Origin: a virus
IMG/VR virus record: IMGVR_UViG_3300020160_002696
Location: 1 to 64,000 of that record
Reading direction: 5' to 3' (one strand)
DNA: 64,000 nt
Shown: piece after piece, positions 448 to 61,731 of the stretch
Layout: each line of letters starts with the position of its first letter
Position numbering within the stretch: the first letter of the stretch is position 1
Translations under genes and position numbers: made by a program
Notes under the pieces: generated by a model
Databases searched by the model: none
What the model was told of the DNA's origin: nothing
What the model saw: only the letters and a program-made list of their open reading frames with translations

Positions 448-588
448 TTATTTATTTTTTATTTGTTTATATTTAATATTTTCAAAGTCAAGATATTCCC
501 AGAAAAATCCAGCAGCACTTTTACCAGGCATATTTGGATTTAATACATTATAAATAGATGAATATGATATTTTTAATTCATTAGCTCT
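448..588 (-). pseudogene. Start-less NUMOD1-like (homing endonuclease HTH) fragment
   Basis: Manual translation RANELKISYSSIYNVLNPNMPGKSAAGFFWEYLDF...; in-frame TGA immediately upstream, no initiator before the motif. Confidence 0.45.
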
Positions 589-1000
589 TCATGGCATCTA
601 ATTTTTTTGTTAATTCTATTAGGTCTTCCTTAGTTAATTTACTAAGTATAAATTTAATTGTATCTTCTTGATTAGTAAAGTAGTTTAAGTTTTCTGATAT
701 AAAATCAACATAATCTTCTTGTTCACCTAATCCTAATGTTAATAATTTGTATTCTCTTTCAAATTCAAGACCTCCATTTACTAAATATTGACCACCAATT
801 TCTTTCAAGTCTTTTCTAAACTGGTCAATACTTATATCTCTTGGTATTTCAAACTCAACTGTCTTGTTAATATCATAATCAAAAGTATCTGCAATGTCTT
901 TGGACTCTTTCAAACCAAGACCACTTACTTGTTTTATAAGTTTTACAAAAGCTAATTTACTTGGTGTTTTTTGAACACAATTCATTCTTATCTTCTTCAT
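581..1000 (-). CDS. Ribosomal protein L7/L12 C-terminal-domain-like protein
   Basis: KLAFVKLIKQVSGLGLKESKDIAD matches the bL12 CTD signature KxxVIKxVRxITGLGLKEAKDLV. Confidence 0.65.
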   Translation of the reverse strand: MKKIRMNCVQKTPSKLAFVKLIKQVSGLGLKESKDIADTFDYDINKTVEFEIPRDISIDQFRKDLKEIGGQYLVNGGLEFEREYKLLTLGLGEQEDYVDFISENLNYFTNQEDTIKFILSKLTKEDLIELTKKLDAMKS

Positions 1001-1001
1001 A

Positions 1002-1637
1002 TTACATTACTCTTTTAGTAGCTTCATTAAATAAATAAGTGTCAATAATCTTTTGGTCAACTTTACATACTTGATTAAAAGTATCACCAAAAGCTGATGT
1101 TTCATCATTATAATTGTGGATTGTATAGTCAGATAGTCTATTTTTTTCAAGTTGATCCATTTCAGTCTTTGATAAATCATTGATTTGTAGTAAACCCATT
1201 TTAGTAAGTTGTTTACATCTACTAATTCTATCTGTATGTGAGGCAAATATACTGATACTTCTATCCATTTTTTTATCCCAACCTCTTTCAAATAAGATTG
1301 ATGAATGGAAAATAGTGTATATTGAATTTTGTTTTTTGTTGAACCTATCATAGGCTCTAAGAATATCAGGTTCAACCAATTTTAATACATTGTTGAACAC
1401 TTCTGGATTTTTAATTTCTCTGAAATTTAAGTAGTCACCTTGGAAGATTTCACTTCCTAATTCTTCTTTAATATCACCTAATAATTCCCAGTTGTAGTTT
1501 AATATAAACCTAAGTACTGTATCTGCATCAAATACAGGAATACCTATTTGTTTAAATAAATTTGCTACTCTAGTTTTACCAGAGTATCTATTACCAGAAA
1601 GTCCTACTTTTATCATTTTATCATTTATTTGTTTCAT
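1002..1637 (-). CDS. coaE: Dephospho-CoA kinase-like protein
   Basis: KVGLSGNRYSGKT P-loop, GIPVFDAD, ILFE, SDYTIHN; start placed at the ATG overlapping the upstream stop. Confidence 0.8.
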   Translation of the reverse strand: MKQINDKMIKVGLSGNRYSGKTRVANLFKQIGIPVFDADTVLRFILNYNWELLGDIKEELGSEIFQGDYLNFREIKNPEVFNNVLKLVEPDILRAYDRFNKKQNSIYTIFHSSILFERGWDKKMDRSISIFASHTDRISRCKQLTKMGLLQINDLSKTEMDQLEKNRLSDYTIHNYNDETSAFGDTFNQVCKVDQKIIDTYLFNEATKRVM

Positions 1638-1876
1638 TATACTATGCAATTTAGTTTGAATCGTGTATTGTTAGTTATTTTTTTAATCTCTTTTCTTATT
1701 AATTTCTTTTGTTGTTTGTTACAAGTTTGTGAAATTGGATATGGTTGTGATATTCTCAATATAATCTCTCTTTCAGAATTTTTTATTTGTATTTGAGAAA
1801 ACCAATGTGGTGCTCTAAAGCAATCCCAAGTATTGATAGCAGTATAATAAAATTGAATGTGTTCTGTCTTTTTCAT
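1637..1876 (-). CDS. Hypothetical protein
   Basis: First ORF after a Bacteroidota-type promoter; stop overlaps next start. Confidence 0.6.
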   Translation of the reverse strand: MKKTEHIQFYYTAINTWDCFRAPHWFSQIQIKNSEREIILRISQPYPISQTCNKQQKKLIRKEIKKITNNTRFKLNCIV

Positions 1877-1886
1877 AAATAGAGTA

Positions 1887-1917
1887 CAAATATATACATT
1901 ATATTAATCATTACAAA
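1887..1917 (-). promoter_or_regulatory. Bacteroidota primary-sigma-type promoter (-33 TTTG / -7 TATATTTG)
   Basis: TTTG-N19-TATATTTG ending 10 nt before the ATG at 1876. Confidence 0.7.
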
Positions 1918-1937
1918 ATTTTTTTATATAATTATTT

Positions 1938-4946: not shown

Positions 4947-5672
4947 ATGTTAATTCCATATATTGGTGAAAAGACAAAATTTTCACAATTTATAACACCA
5001 AACATTCCAACTGACATATCTACTTATGTAGAACCATTTGGAGGTATGTTTGGTGTTTTCTTTTCTTTAGACTTTGATAAATATGCACATGTTGACTTTA
5101 TTTATAATGATATTAACAACTTAAACTATAATTTATTCAATCAGTTACAGAATAATAAAGATTTTATAGACTTGGTTAAATCTACCAAAGTAGATGAAGA
5201 ATTTTATAGATTTTCACTGAAAGGAATTATTACTACAAAAGATGATGTTCTATTGGCATTACAATGGTTAGTAATTTTGACTTGTTCTAATCCTTATGAA
5301 ATTGGTCAGGATTGTTGGAAAGGTGACAGAGATTTTGAAATATTCAAAATGAAACATAGTGCATATAAACCAAAGATAGATAGAATTACAAGTATTTATA
5401 GTGCTGATTATAAAGATATTATTAATAAGTATGATTCACCTGAGACATTCTTCTATGTTGATCCACCATATAAAGGTAAAGAGAAGTATTATATAAATCA
5501 TGAGTTTGGAACTGATTCACATAAAGAATTAGCAGAAATGTTAAATAACATTCAAGGTAGATTTTTACTAAGCTATTATGATTTTGATGGACTGAGAGAA
5601 TTGTATCATAATTGTAGATTTGAATTTAAGAAAACTATAATGGGAACAGAGTGGATAATTATGAACTACTAA
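4947..5672 (+). CDS. DNA adenine methyltransferase (Dam/D12 family)
   Basis: PYIGEK, YVEPFGG, YNDIN, FYVDPPY. Confidence 0.9.
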   Translation: MLIPYIGEKTKFSQFITPNIPTDISTYVEPFGGMFGVFFSLDFDKYAHVDFIYNDINNLNYNLFNQLQNNKDFIDLVKSTKVDEEFYRFSLKGIITTKDDVLLALQWLVILTCSNPYEIGQDCWKGDRDFEIFKMKHSAYKPKIDRITSIYSADYKDIINKYDSPETFFYVDPPYKGKEKYYINHEFGTDSHKELAEMLNNIQGRFLLSYYDFDGLRELYHNCRFEFKKTIMGTEWIIMNY

Positions 5673-5961
5673 TACCTAACTTGTATAATTTCTTATCTCT
5701 ATCATCACGTAGTTTATAGTTTTCTTTATATAATTTTCTTGCAGCACTTATAATTTCTTTGGCCTGACTTTTAGTTGGATTTTCAGTTCTGGTATTTGGT
5801 ATTCTATCATCAAAGTCCCAATATAACTCATTGTTTAGATAGACTATGGCCTTTAACTCTGAATGATCCTGACCATAATAATTTTTAATATAGTAAGTAT
5901 AATCTACTTGCCAGTTATCATTTTTAGATGTAAAGTAGAATGATGATTTAGTATGTTCCAT
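5659..5961 (-). CDS. Hypothetical protein with C-terminal RxxKL tag
   Basis: Ends LRDDRDKKLYKLGISSS; ATG start MEHTK chosen. Confidence 0.65.
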   Translation of the reverse strand: MEHTKSSFYFTSKNDNWQVDYTYYIKNYYGQDHSELKAIVYLNNELYWDFDDRIPNTRTENPTKSQAKEIISAARKLYKENYKLRDDRDKKLYKLGISSS

Positions 5962-5997: not shown

Positions 5998-6024
5998 GAA
6001 AACCACTCATTTTGAGTGGTTTTC
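5998..6024. terminator. Intrinsic terminator hairpin
   Basis: gaaaaccactca-ttt-tgagtggttttc with A and T flanks. Confidence 0.75.
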
Positions 6025-6026: not shown

Positions 6027-6596
6027 TTAGTAATTAGTTTTTACATATTCTATTAAGTCAGAAATATTATCTGAATTATAAATGTAAGGATGTTTATCTA
6101 ATAAAGATTCTAAGAATTTAACTCTGCCTTCTTTATAAGCATCATTTCCATATACTTTATATTCTTCATGAATTCCTTTTTCCCAATCAAGTAACTGGTC
6201 ATAGTTTCCATTAGTAATAACATTCATATCAAATTGAATAAAGTTATTTGATAATCTACTACTTGCTTCATGAGTTTTTGTATCTAAAATCATTTGTTTG
6301 ATGTCTTGAATGTCTTTATCAGATTTATTCTGACAACATTCTAAAAAGAAGTCAGCAGATTTCTCTTCATTATCTTGTTTCATTGGATCATAAACACAAT
6401 CATGAAAAAGAGCAGTGATTAATAACTTCTCATATTCTTTCTCAGAGAAAGCATGTGTATTTTCATTAATCTGGTCAATTAAATCATTTAAGTGATTTAA
6501 TGTATGATAAGAACGATGTGATTCATTCCACATTCCTAAAACTGTATTAACATCACATTTGATGTTCCATTTGTTTAATAATTCTTGTAAATTCAT
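6027..6596 (-). CDS. HD-superfamily metal-dependent phosphohydrolase
   Basis: HRSYHTLNHL, ALFHDCVYDP, NEEKSA, ILDTKTH, REE-like IHEEY. Confidence 0.85.
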   Translation of the reverse strand: MNLQELLNKWNIKCDVNTVLGMWNESHRSYHTLNHLNDLIDQINENTHAFSEKEYEKLLITALFHDCVYDPMKQDNEEKSADFFLECCQNKSDKDIQDIKQMILDTKTHEASSRLSNNFIQFDMNVITNGNYDQLLDWEKGIHEEYKVYGNDAYKEGRVKFLESLLDKHPYIYNSDNISDLIEYVKTNY

Positions 6597-6625: not shown

Positions 6626-6760
6626 TTAAGATTGGTATACTGGTATATCAATAGTAGATAATAACTTTATAATTTTAGTTTTTCTTCTATTTGCTTTTGC
6701 TGCAATATTAAGATGTTTTTCTAAATTTTTTAGAACAGAATCAAAATCAGTTATCTTCAT
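6626..6760 (-). CDS. 44-aa peptide with RxxKIxxLL tag (not in ORF track)
   Basis: MKITDFDSVLKNLEKHLNIAAKANRRKTKIIKLLSTIDIPVYQS; fills the intergenic gap in the operon. Confidence 0.6.
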   Translation of the reverse strand: MKITDFDSVLKNLEKHLNIAAKANRRKTKIIKLLSTIDIPVYQS

Positions 6761-6761
6761 A

Positions 6762-7016
6762 TTACTTCTTTAAAATTAAATCAATTTTGGCTTCTCTTTC
6801 TTGTGCCTTTTCTCTTAGTAATCTTGCTTCTCTTTCCTGAGGTGTTTCTTCTCTTTTAGTTTTATAAGTACTCCAATCACTATTCTTCATATAACCACCT
6901 AAGAAATCATCAATACTATAAGATGATCCTAATTCCTTTAATAATTTATCATAGGAATGGTATTTATCAGTTTTGTAATAATCTTTATCAAAAAGATTGT
7001 TCCATTTTTCATTCAT
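6762..7016 (-). CDS. Hypothetical protein with C-terminal RxxKI tag
   Basis: Ends QEREAKIDLILKK. Confidence 0.7.
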   Translation of the reverse strand: MNEKWNNLFDKDYYKTDKYHSYDKLLKELGSSYSIDDFLGGYMKNSDWSTYKTKREETPQEREARLLREKAQEREAKIDLILKK

Positions 7017-20138: not shown

Positions 20139-20783
20139 ATGGCAATACCTACATATACAAGAGAACAATTAATAACATTAATATCAACAAAATTGGCAGG
20201 TTCTCCTAATACAATAGATGCAGTTGAACATAGAGAACTTGAAACTGCTATAGTAAATGCTATTTATGGACAAATAGGTGATATTAAAGAAATTTCATGT
20301 AATACTACTTATATAACAAATAACTTTAAAACAGGTACTAATTTAATTGATGAAGGTTTGGGACTTCCATCAGGTGAAAGATATGGTTGGGCTATATGTA
20401 ATGGTAAAAATGGAACAGTAGATAAAAGAGGTAATGTTTCTATAGGTTATGATCCTTCAAGTTATGCAACACTTGCTTCTACTCAGTCAGGTGGTGGTAC
20501 TACACCTTATAAACAAGGTGGTCTAAAAACAGTTACATTAACAATTGATCAAATGCCACCACATAGTCATACACGTCCCAGAGGTAATGATAATAATTTA
20601 GGTGGTGGAACAAATCAGTATGGTTGGCAAGCAATTGATGATTTGTTTGGTAGCTATGCAACAAACACCACAGGAGGTGCTGGATCTACATCAACTGGTA
20701 ATACAACTGGAGGTTCAACCAATGCGCATGAAAACATGCAACCTTACATAGTTACTTTATTTATTCAGAGGATTCCTGTTTAA
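20139..20783 (+). CDS. Tail collar / baseplate-fibre-like protein
   Basis: GDIKE...GWAICNGKNGT.D.RG...GG.KTVTLTIDQMPPHSH...AHENMQPYIV. Confidence 0.75.
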   Translation: MAIPTYTREQLITLISTKLAGSPNTIDAVEHRELETAIVNAIYGQIGDIKEISCNTTYITNNFKTGTNLIDEGLGLPSGERYGWAICNGKNGTVDKRGNVSIGYDPSSYATLASTQSGGGTTPYKQGGLKTVTLTIDQMPPHSHTRPRGNDNNLGGGTNQYGWQAIDDLFGSYATNTTGGAGSTSTGNTTGGSTNAHENMQPYIVTLFIQRIPV

Positions 20784-21483
20784 AAAGTAGTAAATATCCA
20801 ATTTTACCGGCTTCATCCTTTGAATAGTGACCCATTGCTTCTAACTTGGTTTCATCACCAGTTAGTTTAATGTTTCTTAACTTTTGTTTACCCAATATAC
20901 GTTTATCTCCTTTACAAGTCTTACAAGGAGTTAAACCAACTTTTCCCTGACCCTGACAAAATGAACATTTGTTACCATTGTAGTCTTTACCACTACCTTC
21001 ACAGAAATCACAACCATCATCAGCATCAAAGATATGTAATACCTTACCATCATTATCTTTAATGATAATTTTAGATGATAAATCTTTTCCAGATCCATCA
21101 CAAGTCTTACACATTACCCATCTTTCATATTCAATTTTCCCATCAAAAGTATCATCTACCTTGATGTAAATATTGAACACATCATTCTTTTTGAACTTCT
21201 CTAATTTATCCTTAGTGTCATCAAAATTGAAATTAAAATCTGTTTCTAATAACTCATAATACTCATTGTAGTTATTACCATATCTACTTTTCATATCATA
21301 AGCCTCTCTTTCTTCACCACAAAGAATATCATATGCTTCTGTTAAATCACCAAATACAATTGAATCACCACCTTTATCAGGGTGGTGAGTAAAGGAAAGT
21401 TTATAGTAAGCTTTCTTTATCTCTTTTTCAGTAGAGGTATTTATAACTCCAAGTAAAGCATAATAGTTTTTATTTAGATTCAT
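20761..21483 (-). CDS. dnaJ: DnaJ-like co-chaperone
   Basis: J domain with HPD, followed by four CxxCxG(xG) zinc-finger motifs. Confidence 0.85.
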   Translation of the reverse strand: MNLNKNYYALLGVINTSTEKEIKKAYYKLSFTHHPDKGGDSIVFGDLTEAYDILCGEEREAYDMKSRYGNNYNEYYELLETDFNFNFDDTKDKLEKFKKNDVFNIYIKVDDTFDGKIEYERWVMCKTCDGSGKDLSSKIIIKDNDGKVLHIFDADDGCDFCEGSGKDYNGNKCSFCQGQGKVGLTPCKTCKGDKRILGKQKLRNIKLTGDETKLEAMGHYSKDEAGKIGYLLLFKQESSE

Positions 21484-21684: not shown

Positions 21685-21921
21685 TTATTTATCTAAAATT
21701 TTATCTATTTTCTCTGATCTTCTATTTATCTTATTTAATAATTCAAATCTATACTCTGACTTAAAGCCACACCATCTACATTTTTCCACTGGTTTTTTTG
21801 GTGGTTCATTTGTTGGTTTGATAGGTATAGAATATGTATGTGATATATCATTTGACCCACATTCTGGACAATTATTTAATGTTTTATCATATAACATATT
21901 TAAAGGAAAGTTTATTTCCAT
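21685..21921 (-). CDS. Zinc-ribbon protein with C-terminal RxxKI tag
   Basis: CPECG...CRWCG; ends RRSEKIDKILDK. Confidence 0.7.
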   Translation of the reverse strand: MEINFPLNMLYDKTLNNCPECGSNDISHTYSIPIKPTNEPPKKPVEKCRWCGFKSEYRFELLNKINRRSEKIDKILDK

Positions 21922-22046
21922 AACTCTAATATTTTTCTTATTTTAATCATTCTTATCCATCTCTTATCTGGTATTCCTGTAACACCAACAGGTCCACTTG
22001 AACCTGTTGGTCCTAATTTTATACTATATTTTATTTTAGTGTTCAT
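21912..22046 (-). CDS. 44-aa peptide: collagen-like snippet + RxxKI tag (not in ORF track)
   Basis: MNTKIKYSIKLGPTGSSGPVGVTGIPDKRWIRMIKIRKILELWK; overlaps both neighbours. Confidence 0.6.
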   Translation of the reverse strand: MNTKIKYSIKLGPTGSSGPVGVTGIPDKRWIRMIKIRKILELWK

Positions 22047-23788: not shown

Positions 23789-24080
23789 ATTCTTCTGCTT
23801 CTCCAAAGTAATAATCTAAATCTATTTCATCTAAAGTATTTATAATTTCATTGTAAGGCACTAGCTTTTCTACTATTTCTAAAACTAATTTGTTATAACC
23901 TTTCCAGTTTTCAATTGAACATCCAAGAATTTCTTCCAATGTTTCATCTACTGTTAAGGTAACAAATTGATTCTTATAGTAAAAAGTGGCCTCATAGTAT
24001 TCATCTTCATAATTCAATGATAGAATTACTAATACACCATCTTCTATTTTACCTAAATATTCAATTATATCAAATTTCAT
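23787..24080 (-). CDS. Hypothetical acidic protein
   Basis: Operon ORF. Confidence 0.65.
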   Translation of the reverse strand: MKFDIIEYLGKIEDGVLVILSLNYEDEYYEATFYYKNQFVTLTVDETLEEILGCSIENWKGYNKLVLEIVEKLVPYNEIINTLDEIDLDYYFGEAEE

Positions 24081-24304
24081 TATCCTAAAATAGTTTCAAT
24101 TTTTTCATCTCTTTCTTCTTGAGATAAATTTTTTAAAAATCCACCTCTTATTAAAGTATTCATAATACTTATAGCTTGTTTTGTTCTACCATCAACATAT
24201 GAACTCATCATATCTCTATAATAGTCATGTATATTTCTTCTCTCATCTTCTGTTTTCAGACTTGATACTTTATCAAGATCCAAATAATAATCTTCTAACT
24301 TCAT
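24080..24304 (-). CDS. Hypothetical protein with C-terminal RxxKI tag
   Basis: Start MKLEDYY; ends EERDEKIETILG. Confidence 0.7.
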   Translation of the reverse strand: MKLEDYYLDLDKVSSLKTEDERRNIHDYYRDMMSSYVDGRTKQAISIMNTLIRGGFLKNLSQEERDEKIETILG

Positions 24305-24311
24305 TTTATAA

Positions 24312-24581
24312 TTATATTTTTTCTCCAACAACAAATTCCAATTTATGAAATTTATTATCAGTTCCAGTAAATACAATTTGAATTTTGTCAACATCAACAA
24401 ATTCTTTTGCCATACCAGTTACTTCATTAATCATAACATCTTTTTTATAGACAACATCAATTGATGGTTCTTCTCCTAAAAATCTACGCATATCTTCTAA
24501 TATCTTTGATATTTTCCAATCATCATTTTTGAAATCTATATTAGACATATATTGTCTAATTGAGTGTTCTTTTAAATCCAT
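24312..24581 (-). CDS. Hypothetical protein
   Basis: Operon ORF. Confidence 0.65.
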   Translation of the reverse strand: MDLKEHSIRQYMSNIDFKNDDWKISKILEDMRRFLGEEPSIDVVYKKDVMINEVTGMAKEFVDVDKIQIVFTGTDNKFHKLEFVVGEKI

Positions 24582-24943: not shown

Positions 24944-25336
24944 CTACCTCATGACCCTCTTTTTAGTTTTCTTTATAGGTTTTCTATATATCTCTATTAA
25001 TCCATTTGAATATTCAATTCTCTCATAAAAATATTTAATTGATACTAAATTATGTTTTCTAACTATCTCTAATCTACCAATCACTTTAGCATCTTTTATA
25101 TTTACTATGTAAGGTCCATTCTTTAATTTTCTATAGTTTCTCAAAACAGTATCACAAACTTCTCTTCTTATAAGAGGTCTTGATTTATAATTAGAATAAA
25201 CTACCATTGAATCAGAACCTCTGACATTACTTATACTTTCCATTCCATCATAACCATGGTTATAATATTCAACTTTTTTCTGTGAATAAACAAATGTTGT
25301 TATAAACAAAAATAATAATATACTAATCTTTCTCAT
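24944..25336 (-). CDS. Secreted protein with Bacteroidota-style signal peptide
   Basis: MRKISILLFLFITTFVYSQ N-terminus. Confidence 0.65.
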   Translation of the reverse strand: MRKISILLFLFITTFVYSQKKVEYYNHGYDGMESISNVRGSDSMVVYSNYKSRPLIRREVCDTVLRNYRKLKNGPYIVNIKDAKVIGRLEIVRKHNLVSIKYFYERIEYSNGLIEIYRKPIKKTKKRVMR

Positions 25337-25493
25337 ATATGGAAACTCCAGGACTAATAAATATAGATTCATTCTTAGGTGGTAAACCTAATATTCTTCT
25401 TATTTTAATTTTACGTAAATTATTCTTAGGTATTCTGATGTATGTATTGTCAGAATAAGTGGTATAAACACCAGGTTTCATATAGACTGACAT
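25323..25493 (-). CDS. 56-aa peptide: tail-sheath N-terminal-like motifs flanking an RxxKI tag (not in ORF track)
   Basis: MSVYMKPGVYTTYSDNTYIRIPKNNLRKIKIRRILGLPPKNESIFISPGVSIYEKD; start overlaps the upstream stop. Confidence 0.6.
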   Translation of the reverse strand: MSVYMKPGVYTTYSDNTYIRIPKNNLRKIKIRRILGLPPKNESIFISPGVSIYEKD

Positions 25494-25948
25494 TATATTG
25501 TAGTTGAATTTGTTGCACCATAAACAAAATCCATATAGAATAGGTGACCACTTGGACCACTTGGTTTAATATAATCAGGATGATCCTCAGTCTTCATTTC
25601 CTCAAAATCTTTACCTTCAACAAGAGCATCAATTTTTCTATCTCTATTTTCTATCTTAACTTCTTGTTTGATTTTCTTCATTTCATCACCAGAATTACCA
25701 CCACCTATTGGTGCTACTGATACTAAATCTTGTCCTATTGTTTGAGCAGCAACTCTCATTGCAATTGGTAGTAAACTACCATAATCAGGTTGTGAAGTTA
25801 TTATACTATCTGGTGCAGTAACTATTTCATTAGTGGCATGTAGTTCAGCATATTGTGACATCCACTCTTTTTTATCTTCTGAGATTTTCATACTATTAAG
25901 TACTGAATCCCATTTCTTTAGTGTTTCTTCTTTGTTTAATTTTTCCAT
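25493..25948 (-). CDS. Truncated T4 gp23-like major capsid protein paralog with inserted RxxKI segment
   Basis: KEETLKKWDSVL...LLPIAMRVAAQTIGQDLVSVAPI[insert]PSGHLFYMDFVYG vs gp23 KAELLNKWKPLL...VRRAIPNLIAFDICGVQPMNSPTGQVFALRAVYG. Confidence 0.7.
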   Translation of the reverse strand: MEKLNKEETLKKWDSVLNSMKISEDKKEWMSQYAELHATNEIVTAPDSIITSQPDYGSLLPIAMRVAAQTIGQDLVSVAPIGGGNSGDEMKKIKQEVKIENRDRKIDALVEGKDFEEMKTEDHPDYIKPSGPSGHLFYMDFVYGATNSTTI

Positions 25949-31148: not shown

Positions 31149-31221
31149 TATCTATAAATATTTTTATTAAAGTATATATAAAAAATTATAAGTCAAATTA
31201 TAAGTCAATCTGATAGTATGT

Positions 31222-50918: not shown

Positions 50919-51641
50919 CTATAATAAGATATTTTGTTCACTCTTACCTTTTTTAAAGAGATCAAAACTAATATTCTTGAATATTACAAATAAGTCTTTT
51001 TTATGTTTATTTTCTCTTGATAGATAATGTTGTGAATTTGTATCTTTTAGATGCATATCTAATTTTTGATCCATTATCTGTAGAGGACAATGAATTTTAT
51101 AAGTATGTCCTTTATATTCAAAGGTATTATATCTAACATCATTATCTAAGAAATAATCAACTTTGTAGATGTATTCATTACCAAATACTTTTATTAAGCA
51201 ATTTACTACTAATATAAAGGGAAATAAAAAACTATTTAAAAATGAATTTATAGTTACTTCTTTTCTATAAACATGTTGTTTATATCCTAATCTATTTTCA
51301 GAAAAACCAACATCACCACTATATGAGTGGTCATTATAATAATGTGCATTTGGATATCTGTCTTTATCTTTGATAAGAACATCAATATCATTACAACTTC
51401 TATTTATTAGACCATAAAGATTTAATGCAAAAGAACCTGTGATAACATCATCAGGACAAACTATTTTTAAAAAATCAAGCTCATTTTCATGAACTTCCAT
51501 ATTCACAGGTGATACTGAAAATTTAACATCATCAGTAGTTATCACTTGTATCTTTAAGTCTCTTAAAGCACTCTTTGGCTCAAAGTCTATTACCCAACTT
51601 GGGGTATCATATATTCCCATATCATCTGTAGTTTCAAACAT
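50919..51641 (-). CDS. Pol-beta-type nucleotidyltransferase-like protein
   Basis: ITGSFALNLYG...DIDV, KVDYF, KHKKDL; N-terminal RDLKIQVI tag-like segment. Confidence 0.7.
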   Translation of the reverse strand: MFETTDDMGIYDTPSWVIDFEPKSALRDLKIQVITTDDVKFSVSPVNMEVHENELDFLKIVCPDDVITGSFALNLYGLINRSCNDIDVLIKDKDRYPNAHYYNDHSYSGDVGFSENRLGYKQHVYRKEVTINSFLNSFLFPFILVVNCLIKVFGNEYIYKVDYFLDNDVRYNTFEYKGHTYKIHCPLQIMDQKLDMHLKDTNSQHYLSRENKHKKDLFVIFKNISFDLFKKGKSEQNILL

Positions 51642-52000: not shown

Positions 52001-52684
52001 ATGAAACACTTAAAAAAGTTTAATGAAAGTAAATCAGAAATGCCATTGGAAGACTACTTTGTAGAATTTGTAGATGAAGGGTTTACTATTGAAAGAGAGT
52101 TAAATCAATTCAAACTTAAATATACTGGAGAATATGATTTTAGTCAAACACTTGAAATGTATAATGATGTAATCTCTAAATTACAAGCTTATGGTAGAGA
52201 TATAACTAAAACAGACTTATCATATAGAAAATCTGTTACAAATATTCTTATTGAAGTTAAGAATAATATTAAACCTAATGATGCTATTGAAATTACACTT
52301 AGAGGTGAAAAATTAAAACTAATACCACATGCTTATGCAGTATATGGTAGTCCACAACCTCAACAAAGTTATCATACTAATGATGCAGGTAGAACAGTAA
52401 AACTTGGTAAACCAAGACCACCATATGTTAATACTATAATATTATTCTGTAAAGATGAAAATAATAGAAACTATAATATAACTTGGGAAAATAGATATGG
52501 TAATGAACTTTCTAAAGAGGATATTAGAGCAAAAGTACAAAATACAAATATTAATATTGATTTAGAAAATGCTTCTAAAGTAATAGAAACTATCAAAAAG
52601 AATGAAATTGAGGCAAGATATGGAACTGAAATAATGCTTGATGTATTTACTGAAACAATTACTCCAGAATTACTTACTAGATAA
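52001..52684 (+). CDS. Protein with capsid-targeting-like leader (MKHLKKFNES)
   Basis: Shared motif; late promoter upstream. Confidence 0.65.
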   Translation: MKHLKKFNESKSEMPLEDYFVEFVDEGFTIERELNQFKLKYTGEYDFSQTLEMYNDVISKLQAYGRDITKTDLSYRKSVTNILIEVKNNIKPNDAIEITLRGEKLKLIPHAYAVYGSPQPQQSYHTNDAGRTVKLGKPRPPYVNTIILFCKDENNRNYNITWENRYGNELSKEDIRAKVQNTNINIDLENASKVIETIKKNEIEARYGTEIMLDVFTETITPELLTR

Positions 52685-53111
52685 TCTGACTAATCTTATT
52701 GTATCTTGCTATTGACTTACTAAATACTGATGCTTGTTCAGCCATACTTTCACACTCTGATTTTACATATTGCATATCTCTATAAGTGCCACTTAATCCA
52801 AAGACACTATCTTCATTTAGTAAAAAATAAGGTGTTAAATCTCCATAATGTGCACAATCAAATCCAATGACCCAATTATTATTATCATCATATGAATTAT
52901 ATGTTAGACCACCATGTGCTCTTATATTAAGTTCATCATATCCAATACCATATAAAGAACTATCTCGTGTTAAAGTAATATATCCACATAAAGCTTTTAA
53001 TCCATTTCTATGTATAGAACACTCAATAATGACACCATTACTACAGGTATAATTCCATAGTAATGTGTCACCTTCTTTTTCAATCAGTTCCTTTAATTGT
53101 TCTTTATTCAT
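52677..53111 (-). CDS. Conserved phage protein (HGGLTY...GFDCAH) with C-terminal RxxKI tag
   Basis: CGYI, AHGGLTY, WVIGFDCAHYGD; ends ARYNKISQII. Confidence 0.75.
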   Translation of the reverse strand: MNKEQLKELIEKEGDTLLWNYTCSNGVIIECSIHRNGLKALCGYITLTRDSSLYGIGYDELNIRAHGGLTYNSYDDNNNWVIGFDCAHYGDLTPYFLLNEDSVFGLSGTYRDMQYVKSECESMAEQASVFSKSIARYNKISQII

Positions 53112-53528
53112 ATAGTAAATCCTGTTTGTAAATTGTCAATAAACCTTTGTGGTAGATAAACATTCTTTAATCTGATTGCTGGTTTGAAAAGAGGTGCAAT
53201 TTCCTCTACTGTAAAATAAGCTAAGTTACAACCTAACTCAACCACATAAAATGTTAAGTGAGTATTTTCTTTGGCAAATATAATAAAATTATCTATACCT
53301 TGTTTAATTTCATCTAAAGTAACTGGATTATAATTACTTCTTAATTCTTTTGTTACTATGGCATATGATTGACCTTGTAAACCTTTAGATTGACCATAAA
53401 TAGCACCAAATTTATTTCTTGCAGTTAATGCTGCTCCTCCGACCATGTCTTCCTTGTCGGTTAGATCCAAACGTGAAGACTTCATTTTCTTTTAATTCTT
53501 TAATATATTTAGGTGTTATTCTTTCCAT
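53108..53528 (-). pseudogene. A1S_2505-like (macro-fold-related) phage protein with a +1 frameshift
   Basis: MERITPKYIKELKENEVFTFGSNRQGRHG, then one extra C at 53441, then GGAALTARNKFGAIYGQSKGLQGQSYAI...LGCNLA. Confidence 0.7.
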
Positions 53529-53863
53529 ATATCTGCAAATGTTGGTTTATAAGTAACTTTAGGATTTTCATAACCCAAAAGTTCATCAATCAATTTATTT
53601 CTTCTTTCTTGTTTTGAATAGAAAGAGTTCATATCAATTATTTGATATGGAAAGTATAGATTTATACTTTTTCTTCTTCTGAAAATTGGACCTGATATTA
53701 TTTCTTCATAAAAATCCTTTTTTACATAAGAAAAATTATTACAATCATCATAATACCAATCATAATCATCATAATAGTCATAATAGTCATACCACTGAAT
53801 AAACTCAAGGTCTAATTCACGTCTAACTACATCATACTTATCTTTTTTACTAGTCTTCTTCAT
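53516..53863 (-). CDS. Tyr/Asp-rich protein with RxxK-type tag
   Basis: YDYYDYYDDYDWYYDD; QERRNKLIDELLG. Confidence 0.65.
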   Translation of the reverse strand: MKKTSKKDKYDVVRRELDLEFIQWYDYYDYYDDYDWYYDDCNNFSYVKKDFYEEIISGPIFRRRKSINLYFPYQIIDMNSFYSKQERRNKLIDELLGYENPKVTYKPTFADIWKE

Positions 53864-54236
53864 TAAGATGTTTTACAATTTTGTCAATTCTCCAATCTCT
53901 TATGTTTATTTTGAAATCTTCAAATGAATTAGATTGTCCTAATACAGTAATTCTTTCATTTATTTGTTCAATAAGTCCAGCAATTTCAACATCTTTAGTT
54001 TTGCCTTTACCATCATAAACACATTCAATTTTTGTTGGTTCATCAGTTGCTACAATCCACATTGTTATATTGCTATATATATCAAACTGATTTCTAACAT
54101 CATGAATATATTCTTCTGCTCTTTGTCTTGACATACCATTTACACATATATAAAATACAAAGATTGGATTATCTAAATTTAATTCAATTTTTGGTGGTTG
54201 TTGGTAGTTATATGCAAAATTAATTGATGCTGTCAT
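53850..54236 (-). CDS. Hypothetical protein with RDWRIDKIV tag variant
   Basis: Operon ORF. Confidence 0.65.
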   Translation of the reverse strand: MTASINFAYNYQQPPKIELNLDNPIFVFYICVNGMSRQRAEEYIHDVRNQFDIYSNITMWIVATDEPTKIECVYDGKGKTKDVEIAGLIEQINERITVLGQSNSFEDFKINIRDWRIDKIVKHLNEED

Positions 54237-54264: not shown

Positions 54265-54693
54265 TTAGTCTATTAAGTTTAGTAAGTGTTCTACTCTATA
54301 AAATATCTTAGTTTTAGCTTCTTCTTTTGTTAAAAAACCACACCAATCTAATTCCTCAATCTGTAACATTTCTTTTGGTAAAGTTTCATCTGACAAATCA
54401 ATCTCTGAAATATCATTGATATAAACTTTGAATAAATAAAGTTCTTTATAAATCTTACCTCTCTTATCATTATAAAGTATAACAATTGGTTCTTTATCAA
54501 TGATTCTATCTTCTGTTATCTCAATAGAAGTTTCTTCTTTAAGTTCTCTTATGGCAGCTTCTATTTGACTTTCACCTAATTCTATACCACCTTTAGGAAA
54601 TGAATAGGTATTAGACCACCTTGCATTAGTTGGATGACTTAAAAGTAACTTGTTATTATTTAGAATAATTATTATTCCTGCTGATTTTTCCAT
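54265..54693 (-). CDS. Nudix hydrolase
   Basis: KSAGII, FPKGGIELGESQIEAAIRELKEETS. Confidence 0.9.
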   Translation of the reverse strand: MEKSAGIIIILNNNKLLLSHPTNARWSNTYSFPKGGIELGESQIEAAIRELKEETSIEITEDRIIDKEPIVILYNDKRGKIYKELYLFKVYINDISEIDLSDETLPKEMLQIEELDWCGFLTKEEAKTKIFYRVEHLLNLID

Positions 54694-55088
54694 TATATTC
54701 CTAAGTCATTTAATTTTGCTTCTCTTGATAATGCTTTTTTTGCATCTGCTGGTATATCACCAACAAATCCATCCCAGTTTTTGATTTTATTTATTGCTTG
54801 GTTTGCAACAATTACATTTTTAATTTCTCTTTTAACTTCATCTGCTTCAAGATTTATATTAACTAAAGCACCACTATTTTCATTTATACAGACAAGTTCA
54901 CTGGTTACTTTTCTTTCAGTTGTACCAAGACCAAACCAAGTAGTTCTTTCAGTTACTTTTTCAACTTTATTATATACAAATACATAATGATAATTATTAC
55001 TCCAACCCTTTTTAATATTAAAGTAATAGGTTTTACCATCTTCAAATAAGAATGGTGTCATTTCAACTATAATTTTATCTTTTTCCAT
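54693..55088 (-). CDS. Hypothetical protein with C-terminal tag
   Basis: Ends LSREAKLNDLGI. Confidence 0.7.
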   Translation of the reverse strand: MEKDKIIVEMTPFLFEDGKTYYFNIKKGWSNNYHYVFVYNKVEKVTERTTWFGLGTTERKVTSELVCINENSGALVNINLEADEVKREIKNVIVANQAINKIKNWDGFVGDIPADAKKALSREAKLNDLGI

Positions 55089-55091: not shown

Positions 55092-55709
55092 TTAATTAAA
55101 TGTTAATTTATATATTTCTTCTATTGCTTTTATTCCATTAGGTTTTATCTCTCTTGTTCCAATACCTGCAAAGTTTTCATAACTTATTTTAAGAGGTTTT
55201 GTGACTTCAATAAACTTTAGTGAGGTATATGACCATCTAAACCATTTGTCTTTATCCTGGTCAAATACATAAACAAACTTACCATTATTTATGGCCATTT
55301 GAACTGCATAACCTGTACCACCATCAACTACTTGAAACTCTGATTTATTATAAAATCCTTTTGAACCTTTTTTACCAGGTTCTACTATAGTTCCAATTGC
55401 AAATACTTCATCAGAATATTTTACTTGAGACCAGTTTCTTGCTAACAAGTTCATAAACTTATGAATACCATATCTACTTAAAACTCTATTTGCTTTAGTT
55501 ATTTCTTTTACTCCTTCTTCATAATCAGTATCACTAATTTCTACTTTATTTTCAGTAGTATGATACTTTGTTTTGTAAGAATATGCCTTTGTCTTTACAC
55601 CATAGTTGGCTCCTATGGTTTCAAAATAAGTATCACTTCCAATTGCTCCACCAGAATGACAAACTAATCTGTCTAATCTGATTGGTGTATTTCCAAATAT
55701 ATCTATCAT
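55092..55709 (-). CDS. SLOG/DprA-like Rossmann-fold protein
   Basis: CHSGGAIGSD, LLARN, GGTGYAV, VYVFDQ, FAGIGTR. Confidence 0.6.
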   Translation of the reverse strand: MIDIFGNTPIRLDRLVCHSGGAIGSDTYFETIGANYGVKTKAYSYKTKYHTTENKVEISDTDYEEGVKEITKANRVLSRYGIHKFMNLLARNWSQVKYSDEVFAIGTIVEPGKKGSKGFYNKSEFQVVDGGTGYAVQMAINNGKFVYVFDQDKDKWFRWSYTSLKFIEVTKPLKISYENFAGIGTREIKPNGIKAIEEIYKLTFN

Positions 55710-56029
55710 ATTCCCAATTCTTTTAATTTTATATCTCTTGTATATACTACATAGTCTTCTGCTTGTGTAATGAAGTATTCATTCATTTCTTGTTCAGTAA
55801 AGTAATACCATTTTACTCTTTCTGAGTATGGTTTATTCCACCAATCTTTCTTATCAGATCCAAAAAATTCATCTTCAACACAGAAACCATAACCTTCTTT
55901 ATCAGTTGCAGCATTCCAAGTTAAGTCACCACAACCTTTTATCTTGTAGTGACTTTTTAGTTTTAATGTTTCATATTGTTTTATACAAACAACACTATCT
56001 CCCATTTCAAATCTATCTTCTTTATACAT
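55706..56029 (-). CDS. Hypothetical protein with C-terminal tag
   Basis: FEMGDSVVCIK; ends TRDIKLKELGI. Confidence 0.7.
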   Translation of the reverse strand: MYKEDRFEMGDSVVCIKQYETLKLKSHYKIKGCGDLTWNAATDKEGYGFCVEDEFFGSDKKDWWNKPYSERVKWYYFTEQEMNEYFITQAEDYVVYTRDIKLKELGI

Positions 56030-56612
56030 GGTGATCAACTTTAACAATTTCTCTTTTCTCCATTAATTGAAGTATTTCATTGATATGAAATGGTCTGAAC
56101 TCTTTGTGTGCATCAATACCAACATCCATTGATTTACCATAATCTGGAATGCTACCATGTGAGTGACCATAAAGATGAATTACACCTTTATGAGAACTTG
56201 GCCATACTCTGTGAGAATAGTGAGATAAGTGAAATTTGTTTTTTCCAATGTAACCTGTATAAGTATCTCTAACACTTACAAACAATTCAAATGGATCAAA
56301 TGATAATCTTTGTCTTCTTTCTTCATTGAATTCATCAAAAATTTCATCATGGTTTCCTTTTATTAAGTGAATAGTTTTACAGATTAAAGATTTTCTGAAA
56401 TCATACATTTTTTGTGGTGAACCAAAAGAGAAATCACCAAGATGATAAAGAATATCATCTTCTTTTACATATTTGTTGATAGTATCAATCAAACACTCAT
56501 TCATTTCCTGAACTGTTTTGAAAGTTCTGTAACCAGACTTCCATTTTGACAATTCTGGACCTGCAATTCCTGAGTGATGATAGTGTGTATCAGATGTAAA
56601 CCAAATGTTCAT
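56022..56612 (-). CDS. Calcineurin-like metallophosphoesterase
   Basis: FTSDTH, HLGD, GNHD, HY, GHSH, DVGID. Confidence 0.9.
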   Translation of the reverse strand: MNIWFTSDTHYHHSGIAGPELSKWKSGYRTFKTVQEMNECLIDTINKYVKEDDILYHLGDFSFGSPQKMYDFRKSLICKTIHLIKGNHDEIFDEFNEERRQRLSFDPFELFVSVRDTYTGYIGKNKFHLSHYSHRVWPSSHKGVIHLYGHSHGSIPDYGKSMDVGIDAHKEFRPFHINEILQLMEKREIVKVDHHV

Positions 56613-59201: not shown

Positions 59202-60425
59202 ATGGCTAAACAAGTTAAAGAAGGAAAAAAATTTGAATTCAGTAAAGTAGGTTCGATTTTGGATAACATAGCAAAATCTGTTCCAATTATTATTGAGAAG
59301 GAAGTTAAAGAAAAACAATTTATATCAACTGGTTGTTATTTATTAGATGCTGCATTATCTGCAAAATTAGTTGGTGGTGGAATCTTAGGTGGTCGTATCT
59401 TTGGTTTATTAGGAGAATCTGGAGCAGGTAAATCATTTATTGCTTACTCTATTTGTAAGTCAGCTCAGAAATCAGGTGCATCAATTATTTATATTGATAC
59501 TGAAAACTCAATTGATTTAGAAGGAATCACAAAATTTGGTATTGATAATGCACCAGATAAATTCAGATTAGTTAGATCTAATAAAGTTGAAGATATTAAT
59601 ATATTCTTAACTCAATTATTAGATGAATTAAAAGATGCTAAAATGGATGGTTTTGAAATTCCTAAAATTGTTATTGTACTTGATTCAATTGGTATGATGT
59701 CTTCTAATAAAGAGAAAGAAGATTTATTAAAAGGAGCAATGAAACAAGATATGACTAGAGCAAAAGGATTAAATGCACTTTTTAGAAGTATTAGTTCTGA
59801 CTTAGGTTTCTTAGATATTCCAATGGTTTGTTGTAACCACACATACTTATCTCAAGATTTATTTCCTAAAGAAATATCTAAAGGTGGTATGGGTCTTGTT
59901 TACTCTGCATCAGTATTAGGATTTTTAAGTAAATCAAAATTAAAAACTGGTGAAGAAGATGATATGGACTTAGGACAATCAGGTATTTCAGTTCTATTTA
60001 AAACACAAAAGAATAGATTGGCAAAACCTAAAAAGATTAGATTTGATATTTCATTTGCACATGGTATGAATCCTTATACTGGATTAGATGCTTTCTGTAG
60101 ACCTGAATACTTTAATCAAATTGGTATTGCTAAAGGTAAAATGGAAGTTGATAAATCAACAGGTGAAATGAAGTTCATACCAGGTGGCATTAGATGGTAT
60201 GTTGACCACTTAAATAAATCAGTAACAACTAAACAATTATTCACACAAGAAGTATTCACACAAGAAGTATTGGAAAAAATGGCACCAATAGTTAATGATT
60301 ATTTCAGATTTAAAAGTATTGATGAAATTGATGAAGTTGAAAAAGAATTTAATGCAATCATTGAGGAAGAAGATGATACAAACGGATTTACAGATGCAGC
60401 AGATGCAGATGATATTTTCGGATAA
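59202..60425 (+). CDS. uvsX: UvsX/RecA-like recombinase
   Basis: ISTG, GESGAGKS, YIDTE, VLDSIG, DMTRAK, NHTY, GG.G..YSAS, KNR. Confidence 0.92.
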   Translation: MAKQVKEGKKFEFSKVGSILDNIAKSVPIIIEKEVKEKQFISTGCYLLDAALSAKLVGGGILGGRIFGLLGESGAGKSFIAYSICKSAQKSGASIIYIDTENSIDLEGITKFGIDNAPDKFRLVRSNKVEDINIFLTQLLDELKDAKMDGFEIPKIVIVLDSIGMMSSNKEKEDLLKGAMKQDMTRAKGLNALFRSISSDLGFLDIPMVCCNHTYLSQDLFPKEISKGGMGLVYSASVLGFLSKSKLKTGEEDDMDLGQSGISVLFKTQKNRLAKPKKIRFDISFAHGMNPYTGLDAFCRPEYFNQIGIAKGKMEVDKSTGEMKFIPGGIRWYVDHLNKSVTTKQLFTQEVFTQEVLEKMAPIVNDYFRFKSIDEIDEVEKEFNAIIEEEDDTNGFTDAADADDIFG

Positions 60426-60482
60426 AAAAAGAAAACCTCTTTTATAAGTAGGTTTAAAAACAAAAAATAAAAATTAGAAATT

Positions 60483-60653
60483 ATGAACAAACAAGAAATT
60501 TTTGAACAATTAGCAACTTTATGGGCTTCTTTTGAAGAAAACCATGCTAAAACAACTAAAAAATCTGATGCTGATGCACGTAAAGCATTAGGAGAAATTA
60601 AAAAGTTGGTAACTCCTTATAGAGCAGCATCTGTAGCAGAAGCAAAAGCATAA
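60483..60653 (+). CDS. Hc1 / bacterial histone H1-like protein (not in ORF track)
   Basis: MNKQEIFEQLATLWASFEENHAKTTKKSDADARKALGEIKKLVTPYRAASVAEAKA. Confidence 0.7.
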   Translation: MNKQEIFEQLATLWASFEENHAKTTKKSDADARKALGEIKKLVTPYRAASVAEAKA

Positions 60654-60731
60654 TAAGAATCTGTTTTTCCATATTTTGTAAAATATGGTGGTGGAAGTTG
60701 ACAGTACCAGTGTCGACCCTTTATAAAGTAA

Positions 60732-60755
60732 AAACCTCTAAGAAATTAGAGGTTT
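60732..60755. terminator. Bidirectional terminator
   Basis: aaacctctaa-gaaa-ttagaggttt. Confidence 0.75.
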
Positions 60756-61273
60756 ACTTTTTTTTCACCAAATGATAAACTCATTTTGTAATACCACACA
60801 CACCAATAAAAAATAGTGTATAATGAGCCAATCATTGTACGTATATGAAAATAATGTTTAATTAAACCATCAATTACTTGAAATACAATCATTAGTAAAA
60901 GCATTATAATCTGAACTTTATCTGACTTCTTTGAGTATAGTAATTTCTTTATCTTATTAAGTCTATTACCATTAAAGAACTTATGACTTGTTATTCCTTC
61001 TAACTTATCATCCCTATTACAAGAAACACATAAATGAAAATCTTCTCTTTTTGGATCCTTTACTGCTTTTTTATATATTTCATCTAATTTATCATACTTT
61101 TCTTGTGTATCTAAATTTTCAGTTAAGTCAATTTTACAAGAATAACATCTTATACCTTGTTTAACATCCCAACTTACATTTTTTCTTTTCTTAAAAAGAA
61201 TGTATAATCTTATACTTATTACTACTATACAAAGTAATGATATTGCAGAAACTATTGTTGATAATATATCCAT
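60746..61273 (-). CDS. Membrane protein with CxxC...CxxC and internal RDDKL tag
   Basis: Three hydrophobic segments; CYSC...CVSCNRDDKLEGI. Confidence 0.7.
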   Translation of the reverse strand: MDILSTIVSAISLLCIVVISIRLYILFKKRKNVSWDVKQGIRCYSCKIDLTENLDTQEKYDKLDEIYKKAVKDPKREDFHLCVSCNRDDKLEGITSHKFFNGNRLNKIKKLLYSKKSDKVQIIMLLLMIVFQVIDGLIKHYFHIRTMIGSLYTIFYWCVWYYKMSLSFGEKKVNL

Positions 61274-61731
61274 TATCCTAAAATTAAAGATAAGAATTTA
61301 TCTCTCTTTTCTTGTTTAGAAAGAGATTTAATACACTCTGGTCCTAAACCATTTTCAATACTTGATGGAACTGTTAGAACTCTACCACATTTACCACAAG
61401 TACCTTCATGCCAAACTTCAACAAAGTCTTGAAGTTTACCTATTTTAAGTTTATTTAATACATAGTCAAATACTTTAACTGATTGAGCTTCTGATGAAAC
61501 AGCAGATTTTTTACCATGTCTGTAAACACCTTCAACAGCAGTTCCTAAATAAGTATAAGTATCTGGACCAGTTAATACACTAACAAAGAAAAGATTACTA
61601 TCTTTGTCTTTAGATTTTTTTACTTTAAAAGTAAATCTGTTTTCAGTTTTGGTATTAACAACTGTAAATGTTGAATTACCTGCAAACATAAATTTTAAAG
61701 CATCTGTGTTATTTAATTTGTGTCCTGACAT
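61273..61731 (-). CDS. DUF6011-like zinc-finger protein with C-terminal tag variant
   Basis: CGKCGRVLTVPSSIENGLGPEC; ends EKRDKFLSLILG; TACTTTTG -7 box at 61750-61757. Confidence 0.75.
   Translation of the reverse strand: MSGHKLNNTDALKFMFAGNSTFTVVNTKTENRFTFKVKKSKDKDSNLFFVSVLTGPDTYTYLGTAVEGVYRHGKKSAVSSEAQSVKVFDYVLNKLKIGKLQDFVEVWHEGTCGKCGRVLTVPSSIENGLGPECIKSLSKQEKRDKFLSLILG

Follow-up and report, generated by a model that had tools for sequence, protein, structure and literature searches.

The window analysed here is a 64,000-nucleotide stretch, the first 64 kb of the 86.85-kb virus record IMGVR_UViG_3300020160_002696 (IMG/VR; completeness 15% according to CheckV). It codes for a series of small proteins that share a short peptide, the tag, mostly found close to the carboxyl terminus. 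A sequence-only reading of the window had listed 17 such proteins and proposed that the peptide docks otherwise unrelated partners on one common hub. The tag is indeed real: its enrichment, its conservation in orthologues and its codon use show a portable helical element, carried by small proteins with no other relationship and selected at the protein level. It is probably a recognition helix, h-R-[DE]-x-K-[IL]-[NDEK]-x-[IL]-[LIFG], that acts as a label read by one shared partner; its Arg, Lys and three aliphatic residues, disposed on one helix face, would plug each carrier into that partner. Carriers are nearly all small, fast-evolving and unrelated to each other, and lie outside gene units headed by the motif AATATATA. 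The largest phage genomes consist mostly of small genes without assigned function, and such a label would bring some 50 of them in each genome together in one pathway.

The window has a G+C content of 25-31%, with a coding density of 95% under the standard code and no tRNA genes found. Its closest published relatives are LR745206 (634,780 bp) and LR756502 (642,428 bp), whose SbcC-like proteins are 81% and 75% identical, respectively, to the one of the window. According to the available text of PMC9723777, in which the tag is not mentioned, these two are among the largest megaphages and their sources are a subsurface sample from Japan and a freshwater lake in France. The available text of PMC7162821 assigns genomes above 634 kb to the "Mahaphage" clade, with Bacteroidetes as predicted hosts; the words Clp, chaperon, C-terminal and protease have no occurrence in its main text. 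Full-text searches of the literature, with supplementary files outside them, found no description of a shared carboxyl-terminal motif in huge phages. Comparisons also used four IMG/VR relatives found via related loci, G001 to G004 (436-508 kb, 95-98% complete). The window is syntenic to G002 at about 176-257 kb.

All 17 peptides quoted in the sequence-only reading are present in their minus-strand open reading frames (ORFs), named here by their first coordinate in the window. The strict pattern R..K[IL]..[IL] is found in 14 of them (581, 5659, 6626, 6762, 21685, 21912, 24080, 25323, 25493, 50919, 52677, 54693, 55706 and 60746), and the remaining three are variants (53516, RRNKLIDELLG; 53850, RDWRIDKIV; 61273, KRDKFLSLILG). 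The record has 18 strict matches against 1.96 +/- 1.36 (maximum 7) in 2000 within-protein shuffles that keep composition. Eleven of them are carboxyl-terminal, within 12 residues of the end, against 0.14 (maximum 3). The greedy gene caller dropped ORF 25323-25493, whose copy is absent from the 18 matches. This is the composition-shuffled control that the sequence-only reading had called for, and both the frequency and the terminal position stand far above expectation. Three further strict matches appear fortuitous or unsupported: the one in 60964 looks like chance, its Arg not being kept in orthologues; the one in 30806 is inside a 584-residue fibre protein; and the one in 52301 (plus strand) is found only in close relatives at 85-93% identity.

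Since the window had been inspected before the pattern was defined, other genomes and sister patterns served to test it. Strict matches number 62 in G002 (663 called proteins; 46 carboxyl-terminal; 13.2 and 1.06 expected), 38 in G004 (33 carboxyl-terminal; 9.95 and 0.81 expected) and 57 in the first 360 kb of G001 (37 carboxyl-terminal; 9.5 and 0.84 expected). The first 200 kb of LR745206, LR756502 and LR756504 have 31, 29 and 22 carboxyl-terminal copies when 0.57, 0.46 and 0.69 are expected, respectively. Across these six related huge phages the number of carboxyl-terminal copies is thus 22-46 for an expectation of 0.5-1.1. Among 400 sister patterns X..Y[IL]..[IL] counted in three genomes, R..K occurs 114 times in the last 20 residues against 2.39 at the protein-body rate. 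The runner-up, R..N, occurs 20 times against 1.41, and reversed and swapped control patterns are flat (4-5). A position matrix of the tag, built on G002 (scores of at least 18 occur 0.2 times per shuffled genome), finds 50 G002 proteins at a score where shuffles give 0.4; this is a lower bound, corresponding to about 8% of the genes. The share of tagged proteins in the clade is about 7-10%, and about one small protein in ten ends in a helix that behaves like an address label.

The genome is rich in Lys, Ile and Leu at 27% G+C and most tags are closely followed by the start codon of the next gene, features that would suit a by-product, either of composition or of a signal in DNA or RNA at the ends of genes (promoter, translation coupling or A-rich initiation region). 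An origin in chance or composition is ruled out by the shuffles, the other genomes and the sister patterns; the three non-coding plus-strand frames of the window show 3 matches. Conserved internal copies and tags at operon ends also exist. Codon use at the four fixed positions follows the genome-wide use (for instance 31 Arg AGA codons observed and 33.6 expected), and Ile (ATH) and Leu (TTR/CTN) codons interchange at the aliphatic positions. The invariant Arg is coded by five different codons, of both the AGR and CGN types, in 11 orthologues of the 24080 family (AGA six times, AGG twice, CGC, CGA and CGT). Genome-like codon use and Arg codon switching rule out a nucleic-acid signal at gene ends, and the by-product explanation as a whole is extremely improbable.

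Selection is seen on the peptide itself. The sequence-only reading had made its case depend on conservation in orthologues, and in families 21685, 24080, 25493, 53516, 53850, 54693 and 55706, whose bodies drop to 35-50% identity, no segment is better kept than the tag. Arg and Lys are invariant in 10 orthologues of 24080. A profile of this family searched against 1.84 billion representatives gave 130 matches, scoring 36-115 bits on 70 positions. Among the 112 matches that are 60-100 residues long, 87 keep R..K[IL]..[ILMVF] in their last 22 residues and Arg (91%) and Lys (89%) are among the best-kept columns, a conservation figure that is partly circular because the profile included the tag. 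Between 7020-7736 and 6027-6596 the window contains two tagged genes (6626-7016), and G002 has four small tagged genes (250570-251696) between the homologues of these two, with a single pair weakly similar; to judge from these gene contents, bodies turn over while the tag stays. Three large proteins (1140, 856 and 878 residues) match the 24080-family profile in 5-8 separate stretches and may be repeat proteins of the 24080-type small domain.

The extended consensus of the tag is [K or h]-x-x-h-R-[DE]-x-K-[IL]-[NKED]-x-[IL]-[LIGF]-x. In three genomes 114 of the 153 strict matches are in the last 20 residues. The most frequent distance from the last fixed aliphatic position to the end is two residues (50/157), with a range of 1-12, and internal tags often have a Gly after them. 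The median length is 100 residues for carriers (10th-90th percentile 65-178) and 163 for all proteins. By helix geometry, positions 0, 3, 4, 7 and 8 (R, K, I/L, I/L, L) of the predicted tag helix would lie on one face. An AlphaFold2 model of the 24080 family, based on a ten-sequence alignment, has a body with pLDDT 90-98, while the helix (residues 62-69) has pLDDT near 50 and is not packed on the body; a Foldseek search with the body gave no match at an E-value of 0.001 or better. The model supports a detached helix of low confidence, as expected of a docking motif.

The anatomy of the tag bears on two alternatives that need no protein reader. One is an amphipathic helix targeting membranes, like the carboxyl-terminal helices of MinD and FtsA: the tag is a short amphipathic stretch at the carboxyl terminus with a slight excess of basic charge (+1.7 on average over the 14-residue segment). 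Membrane helices tolerate wide sequence variation, which counts against this possibility, as the Arg and Lys of the tag are nearly invariant in position; moreover, 68 of 116 tags have an acidic residue after Arg, and net charges extend from -3 to +7. Membrane targeting is therefore very unlikely. The other is a self-association helix through which the small proteins would form dimers or bundles. Antiparallel pairing might be allowed by the a/d/e-like spacing of R, K, I, I and L and by the acidic residues at +1 and +5. A stable coiled coil needs more than nine to thirteen residues, and an interface common to about 50 proteins would cross-associate them, which leaves this alternative a slim chance; the low monomer confidence of the tag helix in AlphaFold2 decides nothing on self-association.

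The 17 carriers of the window are the following (scores are those of the position matrix).

581..1000, minus strand: 139-residue protein with a bL12 carboxyl-terminal-domain-like part at its amino terminus (Pfam Ribosomal_L12, 31 bits, cut-off 25.9, E=3.1e-7, residues 13-70) and an internal tag, REYKLLTLGL (nt 728-757), after which 48 residues remain; score 13.7; no orthologue in the related loci compared.
5659..5961, minus strand: 100-residue protein (115 residues from a GTG at 6006) ending RDKKLYKLGISSS, with 5 residues after the core (nt 5677-5700); score 13.8.
6626..6760, minus strand: 44-residue protein; tag RKTKIIKLL, with 11 residues beyond the core; score 18.2.
6762..7016, minus strand: 84-residue protein ending REAKIDLILKK; score 16.8; matches weakly a tagged 74-residue protein of G002, 250570-250794 (33% identity, E=1.9e-4).
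21685..21921, minus strand: 78-residue Cys-pair (zinc-ribbon-like) protein ending RSEKIDKILDK; R..KI..IL kept in 8/8 homologues (35-94% identity).
21912..22046, minus strand: 44-residue Gly-rich peptide ending RMIKIRKILELWK; score 13.1; its two homologues read RMIKIGKML and RVRKINKLI.
24080..24394, minus strand: small helical protein ending RDEKIETILG, 104 residues from this ATG; orthologues have 69-79 residues, the start being a later Met.
25323..25493, minus strand: 56-residue ORF with internal tag RKIKIRRILG (nt 25386-25415), overlapping 24944-25372 by 50 nt; R.[IL]K[IL]..I[LF] kept in 4/4 homologues.
25493..25948, minus strand: 151-residue paralogue of the amino-terminal part of the major capsid protein; the tag ENRDRKIDAL (nt 25622-25645) is internal; NRD.KI[DE].[IL] kept in 9/10 homologues and deleted in one.
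50919..51641, minus strand: 240-residue protein with a tag-like RDLKIQVI near its amino terminus (nt 51540-51563); R[DN]LKI[QR][VLM][IV] kept in 4 homologues down to 34% identity; the segment may simply be part of the fold.
52677..53111, minus strand: 144-residue protein (phrog_2164, function unassigned) ending RYNKISQII; tag kept in three close homologues, the G002 homologue ending RESKLKELGIKD.
53516..53863, minus strand: 115-residue Tyr/Asp-rich protein with variant tag RRNKLIDELLG (nt 53573-53605) followed by 18 residues; score 19.1; distant homologues read LRE[RK][KR]INDLLG.
53850..54236, minus strand: 128-residue protein with variant tag RDWRIDKIV (nt 53874-53900), Arg replacing Lys; RDWRI[DG]K[IL] kept in 6 homologues down to 50% identity.
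54693..55088, minus strand: 131-residue protein ending REAKLNDLGI; R[ED].KL.DLGI kept in 5 homologues down to 43% identity.
55706..56029, minus strand: 107-residue protein ending RDIKLKELGI, in a unit headed by TAnnTTTG at -31 of gene 56022-56612; RD.KLK[ED]LGI kept in 6 homologues.
60746..61273, minus strand: 175-residue membrane protein with a CxxC pair and then RDDKLEGI (nt 60992-61015); no Pfam or PHROG match; a weak member, as distant homologues keep C..C.RD but not Lys.
61273..61731, minus strand: 152-residue DUF6011 protein (Pfam, 43.4 bits, cut-off 26.6, E=2.4e-11) ending with the variant KRDKFLSLILG (nt 61276-61308); score 15.1; RD[KS][FK]L..[IL]L kept in 6 homologues down to 52% identity.

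Some descriptions made in the sequence-only reading need to be relaxed. The enrichment at the carboxyl terminus holds, while "extreme C-terminus" is a loose wording for 6626, with 11 residues after the core, and for 53516, with 18 after the 11-residue motif. The location of all carriers on the minus strand is correct for the window and merely reflects operon orientation; carriers of G002 are found on both strands. Among the partner domains that had been named, bL12 (581) and DUF6011 (61273) are confirmed by their Pfam matches. The capsid-protein fragment (25493) is confirmed too: it aligns with residues 5-109 of the 576-residue G002 capsid protein (37% identity over 105 columns, BLASTP E=1.4e-16), itself matched by Pfam Gp23 at 81.5 bits; the carrier alone has no Pfam or PHROG match. 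The zinc ribbon of 21685 has nothing beyond a weak match to Pfam Zn_ribbon_8 (E=0.0023). The "NTase" (50919) and the sheath-like protein (25323) found no family match in Pfam or PHROGs.

Five small ORFs of G002 match separate pieces of its own major capsid protein (31-38% identity, E-values from 1e-5 to 7e-14):

41158-41412, 198754-198957, 234140-234631, 335553-335759 and 436351-436869, G002: capsid-piece ORFs.

One of them has a carboxyl-terminal tag and another an internal tag. The idea that tagged proteins are fragments of large proteins was rejected, as no enrichment was found in G002 (1/9 fragments against 44/402 small proteins). Capsid fragments and the tag are overlapping but separate phenomena.

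Carriers also differ from other genes in the signals that precede their units. The 7-mers enriched upstream of genes in three genomes include ATATATA (385 of 791 regions, 23 expected) and ATATTTG (96, 17 expected). In the window, the motif AATATATA is found 12-33 nt before the start codons of many genes that are large or giant or adjoin fibre genes:

upstream of 14686, 24930, 27825, 36991, 43108 and 52001: examples of AATATATA.

It is likely that AATATATA is a phage-specific promoter, and its position before large, fibre-type and giant genes suggests that it marks late genes. Other units are headed by TAnnTTTG, which we take to be the Bacteroidetes -7 type promoter motif. The two motif classes partition the genes, a separation that relies solely on 7-mer enrichment upstream of genes; the plain count of TAnnTTTG in the non-coding DNA of G002 (88 of 798) is unremarkable beside control patterns. 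In the three genomes tagged genes amount to 12/707 in AATATATA units, 25/340 in TAnnTTTG units and 51/609 in units with neither motif, or 1.7% in AATATATA units against 7.4-8.4% elsewhere (Fisher test for TAnnTTTG against AATATATA units, p=1.6e-5). The difference persists among proteins of at most 250 residues (12/471 against 25/288, p=2e-4). The sequence-only reading had placed most carriers under TAnnTTTG; this is so for 10 of the 17, and the remaining 7 belong to units without recognised motif.

These data bear on a third alternative, that the tag is a signal for targeting to the virion, a carboxyl-terminal counterpart of the phage T4 capsid targeting sequence that would load small proteins for injection. 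The T4 sequence is found on packaged proteins (IPI-III, Alt), is amino-terminal and is cleaved by the prohead protease. T4 internal proteins are small, fast-evolving and unrelated, as the carriers are, and in both cases a short peptide is shared. Huge capsids can hold many proteins and two carriers are capsid-protein fragments. However, the phage tag is carboxyl-terminal, whereas the T4 signal is amino-terminal and cleaved, and none of the recognised structural proteins was seen to carry a tag. The motif AATATATA, whose late timing is inferred, heads large and fibre-type genes, and its units are 4.6-fold depleted in tagged genes. Delivery into the virion has only a small chance of being the function of the tag.

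A protease or unfoldase hub, as proposed in the sequence-only reading, appears plausible from the genes that the relatives encode. Provided that there is one shared partner, the phages' own ClpC-ClpP is the first, circumstantial candidate, which we regard as possible without being probable.

L043:15339-17453 (G002) and L056:12044-14176 (G004): gene of ClpC without N-domain.
L043:14898-15320 (G002) and orthologues: tail-tube/Hcp-fold protein coded upstream of ClpC, outside any tail module.

The relatives encode a two-ring Clp ATPase of 704-710 residues that starts about 40 residues before the ClpA/B/C D1 signature and has a UVR-type middle domain and the G-V-G-F loop for ClpP; read from these motifs, it is a ClpC without N-domain. 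Its 120 listed database homologues are 80-100% identical, have 697-725 residues and come from contigs of up to 634 kb; no Clp_N domain (PF02861) is seen in their precomputed Pfam lists. In conservation the phage ClpC far exceeds most other genes of these genomes. It is accompanied by one to three ClpP genes per genome, with matches of 180-229 bits in G001-G004 and of 180-261 bits when LR745206, LR756502 and LR756504 are added; both unfoldase and peptidase are encoded in these seven genomes. All six tag-rich genomes counted (G001, G002, G004, LR745206, LR756502 and LR756504) have ClpC with the GF loop and ClpP of at least 180 bits. Of the tag-poor genomes, LR756500 has no ClpC and LR756501 has a protein with an amino-terminal domain, ClpB-like by its motifs, no GF loop and no ClpP. 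The third, LR756508, codes for a ClpC-like protein without N-domain and with the GF loop (51% identical), accompanied by a ClpP-family match of just 57 bits.

In five of seven genomes (G002, G003, G004, LR745206 and LR756502) the gene directly upstream of ClpC codes for a protein of 115-145 residues. Its model (mean pLDDT 70.9) has a beta body and a carboxyl-terminal helix of low confidence. The body resembles tail-tube/Hcp proteins, which make up nearly all of the 50 structure matches listed (best Z 10.5, with an rmsd of 3.6 over 103 residues); Foldseek E-values are no better than 0.003. The best-kept segment is the helix, ERR[DE]xI[IL][DN]x[ILV]LN, which scores 12.3-19.5 with the tag matrix. 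A ring-forming fold with a tag-like helix, coded beside the gene of a ring unfoldase, is suggestive but no evidence of contact.

Several observations weigh against ClpC-ClpP as the reader. LR756508 has its ClpC-like protein and no tag enrichment in 200 kb (2 against 0.40), an example of the unfoldase in a genome without the tag. The association with ClpC and ClpP is confounded by descent, the tag-rich genomes forming one broad lineage (SbcC-like protein 46-81% identical). The record of the window itself, 15% complete, is without ClpC or ClpP. The neighbour of ClpC is lacking in G001 and LR756504, and its helix has Ile at the nearly invariant Lys of the tag, as does the window variant RRNKLIDELLG. 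The promoter class of ClpC is inconsistent, with AATATATA at -27 in G002 and nothing in G004, and thus provides no argument on timing.

The nature of the tag is a further point. Known carboxyl-terminal tags of AAA+ proteases, such as ssrA for ClpXP and ClpAP, the basic C-motif of the MuA type and the SpoIIAB tail for ClpCP, are unstructured and depend on a free terminus. The phage peptide resembles them in being near the carboxyl terminus of unrelated proteins in six tag-rich relatives that encode a ClpC-type unfoldase and ClpP. It differs in being a conserved amphipathic helix with fixed Arg and Lys, encoded in about 50 genes per phage, and its part in binding or degradation is putative. Its location 1-12 residues from the end, or internal and conserved as in 25323 and 25493, is also unlike that of classic unstructured terminal degrons and does not fit recognition of a free carboxylate.

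Adaptor docking motifs are analogues as well: the XB tail of SspB on ClpX, MecA on ClpC, VIM and VBM on p97, and MIM helices on the MIT domain of Vps4, all of which dock on an amino-terminal domain. They share with the tag the principle of one short, often helical motif with fixed arginines on many unrelated cofactors, and they are what comes closest to an "adaptor library". The phage ClpC differs in having no N-domain on which such a motif could dock. According to the available text of PMC12583610, deletion of the N-domain destabilises the resting state of ClpC, Delta-N-ClpC forms complexes with ClpP, and all characterised ClpC adaptors bind the N-domain. The absence of this domain from the phage ClpC implies that a new docking site would be needed.

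Were ClpC-ClpP the reader, the tag might serve delivery or degradation: it could be a degron through which early proteins are cleared, or it could be a handle with which carriers present their bound targets to the protease. The adaptor library put forward in the sequence-only reading would gain in ClpC-ClpP a candidate machine; it is unproven, and both target binding by the bodies and the removal of host defence proteins are putative. A variable target-binding part joined to a constant recruiting module is also the architecture of poxvirus ankyrin/PRANC, F-box and SOCS-box adaptors, whose constant modules are folded, have 40-50 residues and recruit ubiquitin ligases. A complete system of targeted proteolysis in megaphages, with about 50 small early proteins per genome delivering host proteins or themselves through one helix to a constitutively open ClpC-ClpP devoid of N-domain, is an unlikely extension of the ClpC-ClpP proposal. 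Docking could then possibly pass through a ring of the tail-tube/Hcp-like protein with the same kind of helix, the bodies would include capsid-protein fragments and the bL12-like domain, and the carriers would be natural counterparts of engineered degraders. Such a reader would represent virus-encoded selective proteolysis of a kind not described for phages and show a route to address ClpC without N-domain.

The docking label might be read by a different hub, such as a phage Hsp70/J-domain pair or the host ClpXP, Lon, FtsH, DnaK, RNA polymerase or ribosome, which is rather unlikely on present data. Hsp70s are peptide-binding hubs, and both partners are encoded:

20761..21483, minus strand: J-domain protein of the window, 240 residues, with a DnaJ domain (Pfam E=2.2e-14) and a CXXCXGXG zinc finger.
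360461-362341 (G002), 202414-204195 (G001) and 328751-330532 (G003): Hsp70, 815-845 bits.

The J-domain gene belongs to the same gene string as two carriers, 21685 included, and its product is conserved in G001, in G004 and, interrupted by an intein, in G002. The full Hsp70 of G001, G002 and G003 was not found in G004, which has 33 carboxyl-terminal tags, and is thus not an obligatory reader. J-domain proteins are present in all four more distant megaphages, three tag-poor ones included, and do not discriminate. DnaK prefers a contiguous hydrophobic core, to which the i, i+3, i+4 pattern of the tag and its acidic residues are a poor fit. Should the reader be a host protein, the tag would point to a hub attacked in Bacteroidetes. 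For any of these partners the single peptide offers an experimental handle to fish for the reader.

The G002 orthologue of the J-domain protein (L016:12437-14212) has 591 residues owing to insertion of a Hint/LAGLIDADG intein. A second J-domain paralogue is found in G001 and G002, and in G002 it adjoins two tagged genes.

Sliding clamps were also considered. Clamp-binding tails (the PIP box, the carboxyl termini of T4/RB69 gp43, gp33 and gp55, and the bacterial QL[SD]LF) are, like the tag, carboxyl-terminal hydrophobic peptides on several proteins, and dock on one ring. Unlike their pattern Q-x-x-[ILM]-x-x-[FY]-[FY], the tag has no Gln and no aromatic pair, and carriers are not recognisable replication proteins. 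A T4-type clamp as hub found no support, since Pfam gp45-slide_C, the one clamp family searched, gave no match in 5 records.

Other genes of the window gave the following matches; its three giant proteins (1796-1925 residues) have no PHROG match.

22036-23733, minus strand: SbcC-like nuclease subunit (phrog_77, E=1e-71).
29394-32703, minus strand: two collagen-like tail-fibre proteins.
44121-45398, minus strand: peptidase (phrog_4191, E=7e-77).

Different carboxyl-terminal peptides were observed in two tag-poor genomes. The first 200 kb of LR756501 (735 kb) show no enrichment of the standard tag, and five small proteins coded in LR756501.1 651035-692702 (L096) end in the variant tail R-T-x-L-I-D-x-x-L. 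The 462-kb phage LR756500 (LR756500.1 1-200000, L099-L108) has no R..K tag and may carry a different one, since the last 16 residues of its proteins are enriched in A..FG (9 against 0.47), N..DF (8 against 0.54) and D..FF (6 against 0.87).

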